Shown here: piece by piece, positions 5,483 through 55,009 of the stretch
Numbering within the stretch: the stretch's first letter is position 1
Layout of the letters: each line of letters begins with the position of its first letter
Source of the DNA: an uncultured Syntrophaceae bacterium
GTDB taxonomy: Bacteria; Desulfobacterota; Syntrophia; Syntrophales; UBA6807
NCBI GenBank assembly: GCA_964523565.1
Contig: CAZGAK010000007.1
Span: forward strand, 306 to 64,305
DNA length: 64,000 bases
Reading direction: 5' to 3'
Translations under genes and position numbers: made by a program
The notes under the pieces: generated by a model
Databases searched by the model: none
Told to the model about the DNA's origin: nothing
Seen by the model: the letters and a program-made list of their open reading frames with translations, nothing else

Positions 5483-6572
5483 TTAACTCATCAGATATGA
5501 CTCAATAAAATCATCTATATCGCCATCTAACACCCTGTCTACATTTCCTGCTTCCGTATTCGTCCTGTGATCTTTTATCATTCTATACGGATGAAGAACA
5601 TAAGAACGTATCTGACTCCCAAAAGCTATCGTTTTTTGGGATTTGCTCATATCCCGTAATTTTTCATTTTGTTCCTTAAGTCTCATCTCGTAAAGCCTCG
5701 ACCTCAGAACCTTCATTGCTACAGCTTTATTTTTGTGTTGTGACCTTTCATTCTGACATTGTACAACGACTCCCGTGGGAATATGGGTAATCCTGACGGC
5801 TGAATCGGTCTTGTTAACGTGCTGCCCCCCCGCACCGCTTGACCTGTATGTATCTATTCTCAAATCTTTTTCATTAATCTCTATCACGATATCATCATCA
5901 ATCTCCGGATACACAAAGACCGATGCAAATGAGGTATGCCTTCTTTTACCGGTATCAAAGGGAGATATTCGCACAAGCCTGTGTATGCCAGCCTCAGCCT
6001 TTGCGTAACCGTATGCGTATTCTCCTTCCAGAGTAAAGGTTACACTCTTTACGCCGGCTTCATCACCAGGCTGGAAGTCAATTATTTGTGTTTTAAATCC
6101 CTTTCTTTCACACCATCTCAAGTACATACGTTGAAGCATTTCCGTCCAATCCTGTGCTTCTGTACCGCCCGCGCCTGAGTGAATGGTCATAATTGCATTA
6201 TGAGAGTCCTTTTCTTCGCTCAACATTCTTTTTAGCTCATCATCCCTGACAGAAGCCCTGAGATTATCGATATCCGTTTCAATCTCTCTCAGCGTTTCTT
6301 CGTCATTCTCCTCCCGGGCCATATCGAAGAGGATTTTCAGGTCGAGCAGGGTATTTTGCTTTTTCTCCCAATTATCGATAGCAAGTTCTATCTCGCTCTT
6401 TTCTTTCAGTATCTTTTTGGCCGCTTCCTGATCATCCCAGAAATCATCTTTCAATACCTGTTTTTCGAGTTCCTTGATCTTCATTTCCTTATCATTTATG
6501 TCAAAGATAACCTCGCAAGATGTTGATTCTGGTTTCAAGATCATGTATTGCTTCTGAAATATCTTCAATCAT
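5483..6572 (-). CDS. prfB: Peptide chain release factor 2, expressed via programmed +1 frameshift
   Basis: SPF (RISPFD) and GGQ (SGAGGQHVN) motifs. The true start is ATG 6572 (MIEDISEAIHDLETRINILRGYL). An in-frame TGA lies at 6503-6501, and the +1 frame continues DINDKEM... The track ORF N-terminus is an out-of-frame artefact. Confidence 0.9.
6500..6515 (-). other. prfB +1 programmed frameshift site
   Basis: Minus strand reads CGA GGT TAT CTT TGA C: an SD-like GAGG, slippery CTT, then UGA followed by C. This is the same logic as the E. coli prfB site. Confidence 0.85.
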
Positions 6573-8129: not shown

Positions 8130-8966
8130 TTATAAAGCTTTAGAACCGCTACCTACCCTTTTTATTCTCACTTTTTTTATACTTCTTTCATCGGCTGATT
8201 CAATGATCATCTCGAAGTTATCATTCTGAATGACTTCTCCCGGTACGGGAACTTTTCTGACAATATGAAAAATAAACCCTCCAAGGGTCTCAAATTTTCC
8301 CTCTGGTATCTTTACGTCGAAATATTCTTCAAATTCTTCAATTTCCACCCTGCCGTCTACGAGTACATCTCCGTTGGGAAGAACCGTGAAAGCATCCTCT
8401 TCCATATCATGTTCATCATGTATTTCACCTACTATTTCCTCTATAAGGTCTTCCAGTGTCACAAGACCGGCAGTGCCTCCATATTCATCAATGACGATAG
8501 CCATGTGGGACTTTTTATCCTTTAATTCATGAAGCAGAAGATGTATATTTTTTGTTTCCGGAATGTAATACGCTTTCCTGAGAATCGATGATATGTCGCA
8601 CGCATCGGAAGGCCGTGCCCAGAATTTCAGAAGATCTTTTACATTTAATATCCCTATAATGTTATCCACACTTCCGTCGTATACAGGCATTCTCGTATGA
8701 CCATGTTTTAAAATTAATTCGAGGACATCTTCTATCGTAGAATCGCTGCTTACAGCAACAATCTCCGTCCGTGGGACTACTACTTCTCGAACTATTTTCT
8801 CCCTGAGCTCAAGAATGCTCTGAATCATTTCACCTGATTGCTGATCAATCAGATTTTTTTTCTTTCCCGCATCGATGATTGATTTAATCTCCTCTTCAAG
8901 ATCAAATTCCTCTTTGTCTTTGCCGATTTTTGATAAGAGACTGTCAATCCACGGTTTATGTTTCAT
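8130..8966 (-). CDS. corC: CBS-pair / CorC_HlyC domain protein (CorC/YbeX type)
   Basis: Two CBS repeats followed by a CorC_HlyC-type C-terminal domain, with no TM segment. Confidence 0.85.
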
Positions 8967-9009
8967 AGAGATAATAAACCCCCTATTATGAGTTCCATGC
9001 TTCAGTTAC

Positions 9010-9037
9010 CAACTCGAAACTTGAAACTTTAAACTTT
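9010..9037. repeat. Heptamer tandem array, GAAACTT family (4 units)
   Basis: CCAACTC GAAACTT GAAACTT TAAACTT, between the corC start and the radical-SAM stop. The same 7-mer recurs at 56588-56608. Confidence 0.8.
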
Positions 9038-9039
9038 AT

Positions 9040-9912
9040 TCACAATCCACGCATGAACTCAGGTCTGAGTATATTGTGATTTCCTGATTGAATCACACTG
9101 TGGATGAGTTTTACGGTTTCATCCTTCTCCTCGGGCATCCGGGCCCTTACAGGCAGGTAATTTGAGGCATGGTTGGATGTAAAGAAACAGTTCGTAAAAT
9201 CGGAGTTGGAAACGATAATGCCAAGCTCTTCAAGAAAACCAAACGTGTCGGGAAGTTCAAAAGTTTTTGAAATATATTCCTCATACAGAGGAGTGCCGGG
9301 AATAAGCATAACGGTGAGGGCTCCGACATAATCAGGATCTATTTCGGTCAGTATTCTGGCTGTACCAAGGGCATGATCCACACTTTTCTCTTTGCCTCCG
9401 ATTCCAAGAAGCACGGTAACCGACAGTTTCATGCCTGCATCTTTAATCATTCTGCCTGCCTTTACCATCTGCTCATAACTGACCCCTTTGTTAATCCTGT
9501 CCAGTAATTCCTCGTTTCCCGTTTCTACACCGAGATAAACGATCTTAATGCCCAATGCCCTCAATTGCCTCAATTCATCGGGGGTTTTTCGAAGAATACT
9601 TTTTGCGTTGGCATATGTTCCAACCCTCTTTAACCCCTTTATATTAGATCTCAGTGACTCCAGAACAGGTACCAGTTTTCTCTGTGGTATAATCAGGGCA
9701 TCTCCATCACAGAGAAAGACCCTCTCAATGAAACCGTAACTGCTCGCTTCCAGTATATCTTCTTCGATTTCACTGAAATCTTTAATCCTGAATCTTTTCC
9801 CACTGTAAGTACCGCAAAAGTTACACTTATTATGGGAACATCCAGCGGTTACCTGCAACAGCAAACTGTTGGCCTCACTGGGAGGCCTGATAATTACACC
9901 TTCGTATTTCAT
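9040..9912 (-). CDS. Radical SAM enzyme, unassigned subfamily
   Basis: The N-terminal cluster motif is GCSHNKCNFC (CX4CX2C, not the canonical CX3CX2C), with a TIM-barrel-like alternating pattern afterwards. There is no C-terminal SPASM-like Cys cluster. Confidence 0.8.
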   Translation of the reverse strand: MKYEGVIIRPPSEANSLLLQVTAGCSHNKCNFCGTYSGKRFRIKDFSEIEEDILEASSYGFIERVFLCDGDALIIPQRKLVPVLESLRSNIKGLKRVGTYANAKSILRKTPDELRQLRALGIKIVYLGVETGNEELLDRINKGVSYEQMVKAGRMIKDAGMKLSVTVLLGIGGKEKSVDHALGTARILTEIDPDYVGALTVMLIPGTPLYEEYISKTFELPDTFGFLEELGIIVSNSDFTNCFFTSNHASNYLPVRARMPEEKDETVKLIHSVIQSGNHNILRPEFMRGL

Positions 9913-9917
9913 TTTGA

Positions 9918-10133
9918 TTACTCTGGCCTTATTCCACCATAAGGATTAATATCAATATCATCGTGGCATGGATTGCAATAGAACATTACGTCCACACTAC
10001 TGCAACCATGTGGCATCATATCAAAAATTCGACAATCTTCACAAAGTGGTATGCCACACCCGTTGCAATAAACCACCGCATTTCCTTTTCCACATACTGT
10101 GCATTCTTCTTCGCCTTTTACTATAATGACCAT
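9918..10133 (-). CDS. Small Cys-rich (9 Cys, 71 aa) zinc-ribbon/B-box-like protein
   Basis: Cys pattern is CxxC-x8-CxxC-x4-CxxC-x9-C-x8-CxxCH. RBS AAGGA lies 8 nt upstream of ATG 10133, and the stop is 5 nt from the radical-SAM ATG. The longer track ORF reads through a repeat element. Confidence 0.6.
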   Translation of the reverse strand: MVIIVKGEEECTVCGKGNAVVYCNGCGIPLCEDCRIFDMMPHGCSSVDVMFYCNPCHDDIDINPYGGIRPE

Positions 10134-10171
10134 TTCCAATGTCCTTTCATTTTTCAGCTGATCTTGATGAA

Positions 10172-10260
10172 TTAGCAAAAAGTCAGAAATCCGTCCATTT
10201 GTCATTCCCGCGGAAGCGGGAATCCAGTATTTACATATGGTTACTTTTTGTACTTTTCGA
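10172..10260. repeat. MITE-like element, copy A (single core, second core deleted)
   Basis: TTAGCAAAAAGTCAGAAA...GTCATTCCCGCGGAAGCGGGAATCC...TTTTTGTACTTTTCGA. The left arm aligns with copy C (52295-). Confidence 0.6.
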
Positions 10261-10434
10261 TTTATATCCAATATCGCGACTTTTTTCGAAACCGTCAATC
10301 TTTATCAGGATATATCTGTCTTTTGTTTCGCGAGTATTTATAACATGAGGAAGAAAAAGGCAAGAAATTAGAAAAAAAGCTAAGACAAGTGTGGGTTTTT
10401 CCACATTTCATATTGACACGAAAACATCACGTTA

Positions 10435-10878
10435 TTATTTTTCGTCCACTTTTACTATTTTTAACCCGGCAAGCGAAGCCAGTTTTGATTGGCGTGTATC
10501 GAGAGTTAAAAAACTGCCTGCTTTCATTGATAAAGCTGAAGCAACATGCAAAATATCCAGGGATCGTGATCCTGTATTCTTTGTATGATTTTTTGACAGA
10601 TCGATGGCATGTCTGAATATTTCTGCCCAGCTTAATTGCGGGCGATAGTAAATACCTTTGCTTTCATGTTCATAAAATTTTGACAATATATAAACGGCCT
10701 CGTCCTCTGTGATTTCTCTCCTGAAACGTTTCAGGTTGATTGCATTGGTAAATTCCAGGTCATGAAAACCTGTCAGAGGAATAGCTTCATTATTTTCTAT
10801 GATCCTGTTTGACACATCCAGTGAATAGTCTTCTTTGACATAGAGCTTTACGATTATGCTTGTATCAACGTAAAGCAT
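10435..10878 (-). CDS. vapC: PIN-domain toxin (VapC family)
   Basis: N-terminus MLYVDTSIIVK with conserved acidic positions, 147 aa. It directly abuts the upstream antitoxin gene. Confidence 0.85.
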   Translation of the reverse strand: MLYVDTSIIVKLYVKEDYSLDVSNRIIENNEAIPLTGFHDLEFTNAINLKRFRREITEDEAVYILSKFYEHESKGIYYRPQLSWAEIFRHAIDLSKNHTKNTGSRSLDILHVASALSMKAGSFLTLDTRQSKLASLAGLKIVKVDEK

Positions 10879-11109
10879 TTAAAATCTTTCCTCCCTTTCT
10901 TCAACAACTATGTCGCTTAGAGATTTGCCTTTAAGTTCAATTGCTTCATTGGAAAAATCGGGCCATTCGATTTTGCTCCTGGGGCCCAGCGCCGTTATCT
11001 TTGCCACGGGTTTGCCTCTTTTTGTAATGGTAATCTCTTCGCCGGCTTTTATGCCCCTGAGAACTCCTGAGAAATTCTTTTGAACCTCTCCTACGGTTGC
11101 TGTTTTCAT
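10879..11109 (-). CDS. Phd/YefM-type antitoxin
   Basis: 76 aa with the typical N-terminus MKTATVGEVQKNFSGVL...ITKRGKPVAKI. There is a 0-nt gap to the PIN gene. Confidence 0.8.
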   Translation of the reverse strand: MKTATVGEVQKNFSGVLRGIKAGEEITITKRGKPVAKITALGPRSKIEWPDFSNEAIELKGKSLSDIVVEEREERF

Positions 11110-11126
11110 AACAGAACCTCCACTGT

Positions 11127-11149
11127 TTTACGTATATTATATGCGTAAA
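11127..11149. promoter_or_regulatory. Near-perfect 23-bp palindrome upstream of the antitoxin gene (candidate TA operator)
   Basis: TTTACGTATATTATATGCGTAAA, with 10 of 11 arm positions symmetric. It contains TATAAT on the minus strand, 18-40 nt upstream of ATG 11109. Confidence 0.45.
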
Positions 11150-11209
11150 TTGTGAAATGTCAAGATTTATGATTGCGCTGTTAGAAACACGTAATCTGTC
11201 CGGTTTATA

Positions 11210-11422
11210 ATGGGTCACCGGGAGGTGGATAATTGCGTCAGCTTTGAGGGAAAAACGCTGCAAATCCCTGCGGACCGGCATAGATGCCATTACGTCAGGG
11301 TCAGGGTGCGTGTCCATCGGTACACGGATGGCTCACTGGCTGTTTTTCACGGCCCGAGAAAGTTGGCTGATTATGATGCACAGGGAAAATTGAAACAGTC
11401 CAAAAAGGGGAAGGCAGCGTAG
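11210..11422 (+). pseudogene. C-terminal fragment of a DDE (integrase-core type) transposase
   Basis: The 70-aa ORF (...SFEGKTLQIPADRH...VRVHRYTDGSLAVFHGPRKL...) resembles only the beta-rich tail of such transposases. No N-terminal or catalytic part lies upstream. A possible IS end ...CTATTTGTTGACA sits near 11542. Confidence 0.4.
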
Positions 11423-11666
11423 GTCCGCCGCTCGCCACTTCCTCGGAGAAGCTGCTTCAGTCTAAGACTTGCGCAGCTTTTCTGAGCAGTACAAAGCGGA
11501 CAATTCATTTGCTACAAAACCGGACACTTCTATTTGTTGACAACAGAAGAAATTTGCGCCTCGTCCTGTTTTTTTATTTTGGACATTGCCGTGTTAAAAT
11601 GAGTATCCGTATTTATGTATCCGTATTATGGAGGTTGGAAATCAGGTTGGAAATTGAATTTCAGGC

Positions 11667-11699
11667 AAAAAAAAAGGGTTACGATTCTCTCGTAACCCC
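11667..11699 (-). terminator. Rho-independent terminator after tRNA-Asp
   Basis: Minus strand reads GGGGTTACGA-gagaa-TCGTAACCC followed by T9. Confidence 0.7.
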
Positions 11700-11708
11700 T
11701 TGTTTGAC

Positions 11709-11785
<77 letters not shown>

Positions 11786-11844
11786 TTAAAATAGAAGAAA
11801 ATCCCTGCATATGGGTTAAACGCAAAGATTTTCTTTTCATTTCA

Positions 11845-11920
11845 TGGTAGGCGGAACAGGGCTTGAACCTGTGACATCCACGGTGTAAACGTGGCGCTCT
11901 CCCATCTGAGCTATCCGCCC
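11845..11920 (-). tRNA. tRNA-Val(TAC)
   Basis: Acceptor GGGCGGA/TCCGCCT, D-loop AGCTCAGATGGGAGAGC, anticodon loop TTTACAC, T-loop TTCAAGC, encoded CCA. Confidence 0.95.
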
Positions 11921-11990
11921 GAAAGATATCTCTCAGATGGACATATCTTTAACTATATCAGACAATGTTGTCAAGTCATATTTGAGAAAT

Positions 11991-14417
11991 TCAGCAGGCA
12001 CTCATCTGCGCCTCTGCACTTTGCGCCAAATCCGTATTCCCCCGAACTTTATCTTCCGTGATCAGGGCTTTGTCCAAAACTTCATCCATATTCTCAACAA
12101 AGACTATTTCAAGATCTTTTAATACATTGCGCGGGATATCATCAGCGAGATCCTTTTTATTTTCCTTCGGGATGATGACGGTTTTTATATTACCACGATG
12201 TGCCGCCAGGAGTTTCTCCTTTAAGCCACCTATCGGTAAAACTCTGCCCCTCAATGTAATCTCACCGGTCATTGCAAGATCACTTCTCACCTTTTTCCTC
12301 AAAAGAGCCGAGGCAATCGACGTTGCCATGGCAATACCTGCTGATGGCCCATCCTTCGGAATGGCACCCTCCGGAACATGAATATGAATATCCACTTCCT
12401 TATAGAAATTCTCCGGTAACCCGAAATCATCTGCCCTCGATCTGACAAAGGTCCACGCGGCCTGGGCAGATTCCTGCATGACATCTCCCAATTTTCCTGT
12501 TGTAAGGATAGGTTTACCTGTTCCCTTAACAACAGTTGCTTCTATATCAAGAAGTTCACCCCCTACTTCTGTCCATGCCAGACCTATCGACGACCCAATT
12601 CGATCCTCACCTTCTGTTTCCCCGTGTTTGAACCTTGGGATACCAAGATACTTCTCGACTGTTTTTGACGTTACCTTAACCTGTTTATCATAACCATCTG
12701 CCACTATCTTCCGCGCCACTTTCCTGCAGATTGATGCTATTTCTCTTTCCAGGTTTCTTACGCCGGCCTCCCTGGTATATCTTCCAATAATTGTTAACAA
12801 AGCTCCTTCTGTGAATGTTATGTTTTCCTCCGTAAGACCATTCGCTTCCATCTGTTTTGTGACAAGGTATTTTCTGCCGATATTCAACTTCTCCGGTTCA
12901 GTATACCCTGCAATGCGAATGACTTCCATCCTGTCCTGAAGAGGCGCAGGGATTGTTTGCGTTACATTGGCCGTTGTTATAAACATGATATCGGAAAGAT
13001 CATAATCCACTTCAATGTAATTATCATTAAAAGCAAAATTCTGTTCGGGATCGAGAACTTCCAGTAAAGCGGCTGCGGGATCCCCCCTGAAATCTGAAGT
13101 CAGCTTGTCTATTTCATCAAGGCAGAATACCGGGTTATTAGAACCTGCCTTTTTCAGCAATTGAATAATTCTACCAGGCAAAGCTCCTATATAAGTCCTT
13201 CTATGTCCCCTTATTTCAGCCTCATCTCTCAGGCCACCGAGAGATAATCTGACGAATTTTCTGTTTGTTGCTCTGGCAATAGATTTGGCTACCGAGGTCT
13301 TTCCAACACCAGGGGGACCTACCAGACAGAGTATTGAACCTTTATTTTTTTTCACCAAACTCTGGACAGCCAGGTATTCCAGAATCCGTTCTTTAACTTT
13401 TTTCAATCCGTAATGATCTTCTTCCAGGATTTCCTCTGAACCGTTTAATGTGTTTGTATTTTTCGTTTTTTCATACCACGGAAGGTCCAGTATCCAGTCT
13501 ATATAATTCCTTACAACTGTCGCCTCCGCAGACATGGGCGCCATCATCTTCAGTTTCTTTGCTTCCTTTTTTACCTTGTCATGGGCCTCTTCAGAAAGTT
13601 TCTTTTCCGTTAACCTTTTCTCGATTTCCCTTATCTCATTCTTCGCGCTATCCTCTTCTCCCATTTCTTTCTGGATAGCCCTCATCTGTTCATTCAGGTA
13701 GTACTCCTTCTGAGTTTTTTCCATCTGTTTTTTTACACGTCTCTTTATACGTCCCTCAACCTCAAGAACCTCAGTTTCGGCAAGAATGAGACCATATATC
13801 TTCTCGAGTCTCTCATCAACATCTGTTGTCTCGAGTATATCCTGTTTTTCGTCTATCTTTATGGTAAGGTGAGACACTGCAACATCGGCCAGTTTCGCAG
13901 GATCTTCTATGGATGCAAAAGACGTTAAAATTTCATTAGGTACTTTCCTGCTCAGCTTCGAATAGTGTTCAAATGCTTCCGTTATATTCCTCATGAGGGC
14001 TTCTGTTTTAATAGACTTTACCACACCAGGCATCTTTTCCTTTTCTTTAACCCTGACGAGAAAGAAATCGTGATTGGGAATATATTCTTCAATAAGTCCT
14101 CTCTTTTTCCCTTCAACTAAAACCTTTACTGTTCCGTCTGGAAGCCTCAATAGTTGAATAATTGTGCCTATTGTGCCAAATCGATAAATATCATCTTCGT
14201 GGGGTTCGTCTTTGTGGGCAACCCTTTGAGCAACCAGAAATATACTCTTCTCCTCTTTCATGGCAGATTCCAGGGCATTAATTGATTTTTCCCTGCCTAC
14301 AAAGAGTGGAACGATCATGTGAGGAAATACTACGACATCCCTTAATGGTAATAATGGAATTATCAATTCTTTTTCTTGTTCTTCCGGTTTGTCTTTATTT
14401 TTGCTAAAGTTAAACAT
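11991..14417 (-). CDS. lon: ATP-dependent Lon protease
   Basis: LON N-domain, AAA+ module (GPPGVGKTS) and protease domain ([11 protein letters not shown]). Confidence 0.95.
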
Positions 14418-22219: not shown

Positions 22220-22377
22220 AACACATTTGCAAATTTTAAGTTACTTGAAAGTCAAAAATCGAGTCACTCCCGCGAAAGCGGGAGTCCGTAAGTGTTTGAA
22301 AAAACTGGATTCCCGCTTTCGCGAGAATGACAAAATAGTAGAAATTCGACTTTGGGGGACGTTATGCAAAGGTCTCA
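22220..22377. repeat. MITE-like element, copy B (two inverted cores, nested terminal repeats)
   Basis: GTCACTCCCGCGAAAGCGGGAGTCC, a 19-nt spacer, then GGATTCCCGCTTTCGCGAGAATGAC. The outer arms are ACATTTGCAAA / TGCAAAGGTCTC. The right end overlaps the ftsH stop codon. Confidence 0.65.
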
Positions 22378-52294: not shown

Positions 52295-52423
52295 TTCGTA
52301 AAAAGTCAGAGTTTTTGCCGTTTTGTCATTCCCGACCTGATCGGGAATCTATAACTATTTGTAATTACTGGATTCCCGCTTTCGCGGGAATGACAGATTA
52401 GCGAGTTTTTGACTTTTTACGAA
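52295..52423. repeat. MITE-like element, copy C (best-preserved; 14-bp perfect terminal inverted repeats)
   Basis: The terminal repeats are TTCGTAAAAAGTCA...TGACTTTTTACGAA. Inside are the cores GTCATTCCCGACCTGATCGGGAATC and GGATTCCCGCTTTCGCGGGAATGAC in inverted orientation. Confidence 0.7.
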
Positions 52424-54870: not shown

Positions 54871-55009
54871 GTCAGAGACCTTTGCAAAACGCCTCCTCTC
54901 TGTCATTCCCGCGAAAGCGGGAATCCATAACAAGTTAAAAATACTGGATTCCCGTTTACACGGGAATGACCATTTAGACTATCTTTGGCAAAATTCAAAG
55001 GTCTCCGTC
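54871..55009. repeat. MITE-like element, copy D
   Basis: GTCAGAGACCTTTGCAAAA...GTCATTCCCGCGAAAGCGGGAATCC, a 19-nt spacer, then GGATTCCCGTTTACACGGGAATGAC...CAAAGGTCTCCGTC. Confidence 0.7.

Follow-up and report, generated by a model that had tools for sequence, protein, structure and literature searches.

Does a cysteine-rich mini-protein encoded directly upstream of a radical S-adenosylmethionine (SAM) enzyme belong to that enzyme, or does it merely stand next to it? The question is raised by a locus of an uncultured Syntrophaceae bacterium (order Syntrophales), within a 64,000-nt stretch of contig CAZGAK010000007.1 that we refer to as the window. There, a gene for a 71-aa protein with nine cysteines (the small gene, encoding the small protein) precedes a gene for a 290-aa radical SAM enzyme (rSAM). 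We find that the pair is real and old within part of the Syntrophales. We prefer, with only middling confidence, a reading in which an orphan radical SAM enzyme of housekeeping type has the small protein as a co-expressed but facultative accessory; we read the small protein as neither the precursor of a ribosomally synthesized and post-translationally modified peptide (RiPP) nor an obligate subunit of rSAM. The finding reveals no new kind of system. The unusual spacing of the enzyme's cysteines has been documented before, and pairing with the small protein is optional.

The original prediction, made from the sequence alone, held that the small gene has its own ribosome-binding site and stops 5 nt before the rSAM ATG, that its nine cysteines follow a defined pattern, and that the cluster motif of the enzyme has four residues between its first two cysteines. 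All of these statements proved accurate. The small gene is preceded by an AAGGA 8 nt upstream and ends in a TAA at 9920-9918, followed by the 5-nt spacer (9913-9917). The small protein reads C11-x2-C14-x8-C23-x2-C26-x4-C31-x2-C34-x9-C44-x8-C53-x2-C56-H57, exactly as claimed, and the rSAM motif is CSHNKCNFC, or G-C25-SHNK-C30-NF-C33 (CX4CX2C). By open reading frame (ORF) calling, the small ORF would start farther upstream, at a TTG (10298) reached through a repeat element described below. Because all 18 aligned homologues begin with an MVIIV-type N terminus, the conserved start is the ATG at 10133 and not this TTG. In comparison with the related loci L001 and L003, the small gene has a ratio of nonsynonymous to synonymous substitution rates (dN/dS) of 0.20-0.26 and rSAM one of 0.08-0.09. 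Both genes of the pair are real, and the small gene is under purifying selection.

The original prediction also raised the question of whether the small gene is a conserved partner of the enzyme. We examined the best 80 of 584 confirmed rSAM relatives in genome contigs, together with samples of 201 genomes from the order (24 families) and 301 genomes from the phylum. The small gene lies directly upstream of rSAM in 16 of the 80 related loci, on the same strand in all 16 and on the opposite strand in none of them. The gap between the genes is -11 to +10 nt at 14 loci, 34 nt at one and 180 nt at one. For the order, adjacency was scored by comparing the rSAM and small-protein coordinates listed, which makes the counts lower bounds. 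At least 36 of the 201 genomes carry the adjacent pair, all within four of the 24 families: f1 (10/10, including the genome of the window), f5 (17/19), f13 (7/10) and f20 (2/8). Mapped onto a quick maximum-likelihood tree of rSAM, the adjacency label changes 6 times (at least 2 of these forced by well-supported branches) versus 15.7 times when labels are shuffled, and none of 500 shuffles came as low as 6. One clade of 46 rows, which includes Syntrophus and Smithella, has no adjacency. In one genus of the family to which the window belongs, two small genes stand in tandem directly upstream of rSAM (L077 3537-3991, L090 and L096); L077 is one of the 16 loci.

What survives of a conserved partnership is its conservation in these four families; it was not seen beyond them. 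The small gene was beside rSAM in none of the 29 loci fetched at the phylum level, 7 of which were from the window's order. In ten families (f4, f6, f8, f11, f14, f17, f18, f21, f22 and f24), 47 genomes encode rSAM and have no match to the small protein. Outside the order, the rSAM neighborhoods examined contain no single conserved partner. The neighbors there include a 4HBT_2 thioesterase (6 loci), DivIC (5), UbiE (2), GGDEF regulators (2) and a patatin-like phospholipase (4 loci by eye, 3 scanned).

The small protein also occurs away from the enzyme. rSAM is missing at 12 of the 30 best small-protein loci, one of which (L111) ends 40 nt after the small gene. These 12 adjoin genes for enoyl-CoA hydratase/4HBT/MaoC, cytochrome b5-DUF2231, 4Fe-4S dicluster, transglutaminase-like or glycosyltransferase proteins. 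Genome G019, which is 100% complete, has four small-protein matches and only a 385-aa paralogue of rSAM. In P0182, known from one representative, a B-box of the small-protein type is fused to a CoA-transferase. At the loci of family f19 (L109-L114; for example, L112 1501-1933), the small gene is followed by a divergent second paralogue with the tail C-N-P-N-A-I-F, and both paralogues are flanked by an enoyl-CoA hydratase/4HBT thioesterase pair on one side and a MaoC hydratase on the other. Together, the f19 loci and P0182 may mark a second client context, in acyl-CoA metabolism.

Adjacency must also be judged against its surroundings. A block consisting of an 850-aa gene taken for lon, two tRNAs, rSAM, corC, an lnt-like gene and a prfB-like gene is conserved, with its clusters present at 34-65 of the 80 loci. 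Because this whole conserved block holds functionally unrelated genes, adjacency alone is weak evidence here.

We characterized the enzyme by searches with hidden Markov models, which place it in the radical SAM superfamily and in no named family. The only Pfam match is Radical_SAM (PF04055; 77.8 bits versus a cut-off of 29.5, E = 1.5e-21), and even the best NCBIfam models (HpnJ, BchE, PhpK, an MgmA-type model and Elp3) fall far short of their cut-offs, scoring 33-55 bits versus 350-600. Neither collection detects a B12-binding, GNAT, SPASM, twitch or RRE/PqqD domain. rSAM has five cysteines in total and no C-terminal cysteine cluster. Across 28 sequences, down to 54% identity, the only invariant cysteines are C25, C30 and C33; S26, N28 and F32 of the loop are also invariant, as are an N-terminal RPPSEA, a DGD, a Y-x-G-x-E-x-G and a C-terminal NHASNY. 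The original prediction that the enzyme lacks a SPASM-type cluster and hence is not a classical RiPP maturase was borne out: with so few cysteines, no SPASM, twitch or other auxiliary cluster and no RRE/PqqD domain, we rejected a SPASM/twitch maturase as a candidate.

An AlphaFold2 (AF2) model of rSAM (predicted local distance difference test [pLDDT] score, 93.8) consists of alternating beta/alpha elements forming a partial TIM-barrel. Using this model, Foldseek returned 352 PDB matches at E ≤ 0.001, and the best 50 are all radical SAM enzymes. The closest folds are MgmA (9ccb, 6.6e-12), a model of MtaB, Elp3, AprD4, OxsB, PylB and MiaB, with TM-scores of ~0.5-0.63. The predicted fold is thus that of a generic radical SAM core and of no specific family. 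The Pfam score, the three-cysteine loop and the fold all identify rSAM as a member of the superfamily.

The enzyme family is large. A word-based search with rSAM gave at least 8000 candidates at E ≤ 0.001; the best 120 are 70-93% identical, ~290 aa long and named only "radical SAM protein" or, in Joint Genome Institute (JGI) records, "YgiQ family." Members occur in 180 of the 201 order genomes (E ≤ 1e-60), mostly as a single copy, and in 212 of the 301 phylum genomes (E ≤ 1e-50), with identities of 54-81% across the phylum sample. Among Atlas clusters that have these features, Bacillota and Fusobacteriota are represented most often, which is a lead only. We found no paper on this enzyme family in the literature searched. 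rSAM is an orthologue of a mostly single-copy, uncharacterized radical SAM family of anaerobes. Judged by its conservation in the alignment, the CxHxKCxFC (CX4CX2C) loop is the inherited motif of this family and a known variant, not an anomaly.

The genome of the window also encodes a 382-aa rSAM paralogue (L083 1177-2325, on contig C10 of G000) directly after a macro-domain gene (L083 440-970). This paralogue has an N-terminal RPPSEA like that of rSAM, the loop CPWNKCAFC (CX4CX2C) and a weak Radical_SAM_C match. A 385-aa form of the paralogue occurs in four genomes without the 290-aa orthologue. A further observation concerns the rSAM gene itself. Compared with locus L115 of the same-genus genome G047, the middle of the gene (window 9240-9840) is only 70-90% identical, and most 60-nt bins of corC, the small gene and vapC reach 95-100% identity. 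dS amounts to 0.50 for rSAM versus 0.05 for the small gene. A segment within the rSAM gene appears to have been imported by recombination.

The loop has counterparts in known systems. The original prediction associated the CX4CX2C spacing with archaeal Elp3, and profile-to-PDB alignment agrees: the Methanocaldococcus infernus Elp3 loop, KCPHGKCIFCPG, is nearly identical to GCSHNKCNFCGT in rSAM (Elp3: TIGR01211; PDB 6iad, 6ia8 and 5l7j). Elp3 is also the best PDB sequence match of rSAM (3.8e-9 over residues 111-219) and matches it in Foldseek at 1e-10 to 1e-7. Unlike Elp3, rSAM is only 290 aa long and has no C-terminal KAT/GNAT domain in Pfam. This missing domain, together with a TIGR01211 score of 32.7 bits versus a cut-off of 350, rules out rSAM as an Elp3. 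The same spacing occurs in OxsB (5ul2-4), whose loop is GCDYSRCTFCP; CX4CX2C is reported for OxsB in PMC9204698.

Similarity also extends to class B cobalamin-dependent cores, as HpnJ is the best NCBIfam match (6.7e-15) and MgmA is the best Foldseek match. Unlike the class B enzymes (MgmA, OxsB, HpnJ, BchE and PhpK), rSAM scores far below every family cut-off. Its cluster motif begins at residue 25, too early in the protein for a B12-binding domain to precede it; with the motif at residues 25-33 and no B12-binding match in Pfam, we rejected a class B cobalamin enzyme. Among uncharacterized groups, PMC9477430 lists CX4CX2C as a variant for Megacluster-4-11 of RadicalSAM.org, which therefore has the non-canonical spacing in common with rSAM. 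By similarity, rSAM looks closer to the Megacluster-2 groups (B12-binding, ELP3/YhcC) than to Megacluster-4-11.

Some leads to a substrate come from fusions and neighbors. We detected fused forms of rSAM in one cluster, P0247 (589 aa, 5 member sequences), in which an N-terminal phosphatidylserine decarboxylase domain precedes a 43%-identical rSAM copy. We did not assign a substrate from this fusion, as a single case is too little. Taken with the patatin and 4HBT_2 neighbors elsewhere and the lnt-like gene in the window, it offers a weak lead toward lipids or the envelope.

The small protein had been described as B-box-like, and this description is supported. On the protein of the window itself, the Pfam zf-B_box match is marginal (25.6 bits versus a cut-off of 24.1). 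The B-box models PF00643 and PF22586 both match all 18 aligned relatives at E ≤ 0.1 (best, 4.3e-7), and a profile of the small protein searched against the PDB finds the B-boxes of TRIM63, TIF1-beta, PML and CONSTANS (E = 0.003-0.03). No rubredoxin or zf-CSL model of Pfam matches any of the 18 members at E ≤ 0.1. Its first six ligands have the B-box1 spacing of eukaryotic B-boxes (PF00643), C-x2-C-x8-C-x2-C-x4-C-x2-C. Unlike these domains, which end in H-x-H, the small protein has a CxxC as its last ligand pair, located after an inserted hairpin, and it is a standalone protein of ~70 aa with a conserved NP[YW]G tail. In the AF2 model (mean pLDDT, 88.9), a beta-hairpin insert formed by residues 36-52 precedes the fourth CxxC. 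Foldseek with this model gave nothing at E ≤ 0.001. The weak matches were only to cross-brace fingers (Rim2, Slp4 and FYVE; best E = 0.15). Eight cysteines are conserved across the family, with ligands 7 and 8 displaced by the hairpin.

A profile search of 1.84 billion representatives yielded 124 matches to the small protein at E ≤ 1e-3. Among 39 of these that we inspected, all but one are shorter than 160 aa; these distant members keep the eight cysteines and the D-x3-N-P tail, and several lack C44. From this comparison, C44 is a ninth, lineage-specific cysteine. Long profile matches, such as P0124 (1789 aa, 31 matched stretches), align along many stretches each and seem to be repeat proteins with multiple B-boxes. 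An acidic tail, D-x3-N-P-[YW]-G, which follows the last metal ligand, is also conserved. The protein has a pI of 4.4 and four CxxC knuckles, two of which are CxxCG. A word-based search with the small protein found only 3 proteins, which reflects a limit of sensitivity and not rarity: 110 of the 201 order genomes encode it, with up to 5 matches per genome. Members of the family are thus standalone bacterial proteins, each a B-box-type finger that presumably has two Cys4 sites. Burroughs and colleagues reportedly described prokaryotic RING and B-box fingers in 2011. Since PMC4506424 already states that B-boxes occur in prokaryotes, the small protein is not new in kind. We found no description of a B-box/radical SAM pair in bacteria in the literature searched.

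A mechanism that accommodates these data is as follows. The small gene and rSAM lead a same-strand housekeeping run of B-box mini-protein, rSAM, corC, lnt-like and prfB-like genes. In some Syntrophales lineages, the small gene would have entered the slot between tRNA-Asp and rSAM and then been passed on at near-zero distance from rSAM. Because of this inherited spacing, the pair is probably co-transcribed and translationally coupled. In the enzyme, C25, C30 and C33 would hold one [4Fe-4S] cluster, and SAM would be cleaved to yield a 5′-deoxyadenosyl radical that abstracts hydrogen from the substrate. The substrate is most likely a macromolecule, given that the nearest relatives (Elp3, MiaB/MtaB and MgmA) have RNA or protein targets; a lipid-linked molecule is the weaker candidate. 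The eight family-wide cysteines of the small protein would form two Cys4 metal sites, and the protein may act as an optional accessory, either a protein-binding or a metal-site module. The core function of rSAM would be independent of it, and the small-protein family would serve other contexts as well. A prediction of the complex from alignments of both proteins gave no answer (score, 0.01) and speaks neither for nor against binding.

Several observations weigh against a merely facultative role. Near-zero spacing is kept down to 60% identity in rSAM and ~44% identity in the small protein, as a functional pair would also show, and the pair is nearly universal in the four families that have it. 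A small-protein match is present in 104 of 180 rSAM-bearing genomes versus 6 of 21 rSAM-less genomes, a difference confounded by kinship. Non-adjacent small genes are as close in sequence (E ~1e-35) as adjacent ones, and non-adjacent small proteins could serve the same single-copy rSAM in trans.

In one rival reading, rSAM modifies the small protein (for example, at the D-x3-N-P-[YW]-G-G tail) or docks its real substrate through it. Tight coupling conserved in four families, a C-terminal tail preserved past the last metal ligand and the presence of the protein-modifying MgmA among the relatives of rSAM are all compatible with such a dedicated substrate or adaptor. We nonetheless consider it fairly unlikely, as it leaves unaccounted for the 47 genomes in which rSAM has no member of the small-protein family at hand, the small proteins of G019 that persist without an orthologous rSAM and the five other contexts in which the same protein type occurs. 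rSAM also lacks any peptide-recognition (RRE/PqqD) or auxiliary-cluster domain. Still harder to credit is a RiPP system, to which we give almost no weight. It is suggested by a small cysteine-rich ORF directly upstream of a radical SAM gene, but the would-be precursor is evenly conserved and has a confidently predicted fold, with no split into leader and core. The would-be maturase lacks the domains and cysteines of such enzymes and is encoded by a single-copy gene that nearly all genomes of the order have, and the neighbors (corC, lnt-like and prfB-like) include no protease or exporter.

A different precedent is Kti11/Dph3, a small acidic Cys-knuckle protein with radical-SAM-type partners. 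PMC10468694 describes it as a rubredoxin-like carrier that passes electrons to Dph1-Dph2 "and possibly Elp3," and iron donation by Dph3 is reported in PMC8251694. By analogy, the small protein might bind iron, rather than zinc, in rubredoxin-like Cys4 sites and donate an electron or iron to the [4Fe-4S] cluster of rSAM. Its four CxxC knuckles, two of them CxxCG, its acidic pI and the cluster loop that rSAM has in common with Elp3 would fit such a helper, and, according to PMC4506424, RING-like fingers have a second site that resembles a rubredoxin-like zinc ribbon. Of six independent contexts of the family, three (rSAM, cytochrome b5-DUF2231 and the 4Fe-4S dicluster protein) involve redox or Fe-S proteins; the others (hydratase/thioesterase, transglutaminase-like, glycosyltransferase and the CoA-transferase fusion) are non-redox. 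With no rubredoxin or zf-CSL match, no sequence relation between the two proteins was found, and the likeness is one of analogy and not of membership. The identity of the metal cannot be read from sequence, and orthologous rSAM enzymes are often found in genomes without any small-protein gene. On balance, we regard such a helper as unlikely. The same holds for its broader form, in which the Syntrophales B-box mini-proteins would be a bacterial counterpart of Kti11/Dph3, small Cys4 iron proteins that reduce or repair the [4Fe-4S] clusters of their clients, with the operon copy as the dedicated reductant of rSAM. If true, it would give a prokaryotic B-box its first function and open a way into a large family of orphan enzymes.

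At the other extreme, the two genes may be pure neighbors, the small gene having landed by the tRNAs and been carried along in a conserved syntenic block with no functional tie to rSAM. The whole block is kept despite the unrelated functions of its genes, the slot by tRNA-Asp has also taken up phd/vapC and the MITE-like element described below in this genome, and the small-protein family lives in many genomic contexts. A free-rider would, however, be expected to drift more in spacing and orientation than a gene that has kept its strand and its near-zero or overlapping spacing through deep divergence, and we think this quite unlikely. A facultative accessory remains the reading we prefer.

The features of the locus are given in the table.

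Features of the small gene/rSAM locus (positions in the window)
Feature	Position	Strand	Basis
Small gene, 71-aa B-box-type metal-finger protein, 9 Cys	9918..10133, stop included	-	ORF, Pfam, alignment
5-nt spacer, small-gene stop to rSAM ATG	9913..9917	-	Read from sequence
290-aa single-cluster radical SAM enzyme (rSAM), motif C25-x4-C30-x2-C33	9040..9912	-	Pfam PF04055
Shine-Dalgarno-like AAGGA, 8 nt 5′ of small-gene ATG	10142..10146	-	Read from sequence
MITE-like element, 135 nt, between vapC and small gene	10164..10298	.	Repeat count, genome comparison
corC/hlyC-type CBS-domain gene, next downstream of rSAM	8130..8966	-	Pfam CorC_HlyC plus CBS
lnt-like (apolipoprotein N-acyltransferase) gene, 508 aa	6565..8091	-	Translation read by eye
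prfB-like (release factor 2) gene, 361 aa, overlaps end of lnt-like gene	5483..6568	-	Translation read by eye
phd/yefM antitoxin	10879-11109	-	Pfam; between tRNA-Asp and small gene
PIN-domain vapC toxin	10435-10878	-	Pfam; between tRNA-Asp and small gene
tRNA-Asp(GTC) and tRNA-Val(TAC), conserved upstream border of slot	11709..11920	-	

Downstream of rSAM, synteny with corC is found at 57 of the 80 related loci, and the syntenic clusters of the lnt-like and prfB-like genes are found at 65 and 59. Upstream, tRNA-Val and tRNA-Asp lie just before rSAM at 11 of 12 scanned loci, with or without the small gene, and in the window a gene read by eye as lon (808 aa) lies upstream of the tRNAs. At L001 and L003, the slot lacks the phd/vapC pair, and the 68 nt from the end of tRNA-Asp to the small gene contain nothing else. 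An Rfam scan of 8900-12000 detected the two tRNAs only and, ahead of the pair, neither a riboswitch nor a leader RNA, and a promoter/terminator scan found sites no more numerous than in shuffled sequence. Contigs from RNA libraries (runs X15-X18) match the window exactly at 9193-9466, 9544-9697, 9550-9743, 8900-9097 and 10330-10500. The contig at 8900-9097 bridges the rSAM/corC junction, although DNA carry-over in these libraries is possible. None of the contigs lies on the small gene or on its junction with rSAM.

The original prediction also placed a repeat resembling a miniature inverted-repeat transposable element (MITE) in the promoter region of the pair, and this was confirmed. Its 27-nt core occurs in 5 copies in the window versus 0 expected, the other copies being at 22305-22331, 52368-52394, 54902-54928 and 54944-54970. 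Inverted repeats of 21 nt form the termini of the element, and its interior holds a GC-rich hairpin (TTCCCGC-GGAA-GCGGGAA). In the same-genus genome G047, the stretch of ~135 nt that holds the core here is missing, and the extra stretch in the window matches the element. In four RNA libraries, the core reaches very high depth from many other contigs.

The rSAM family is large, highly conserved and present in most of the Thermodesulfobacteriota sampled, and it is without known function, which makes any handle useful. Standalone bacterial B-box proteins likewise have no tested function. The lineages that keep a B-box mini-protein coupled to rSAM may provide such a handle.

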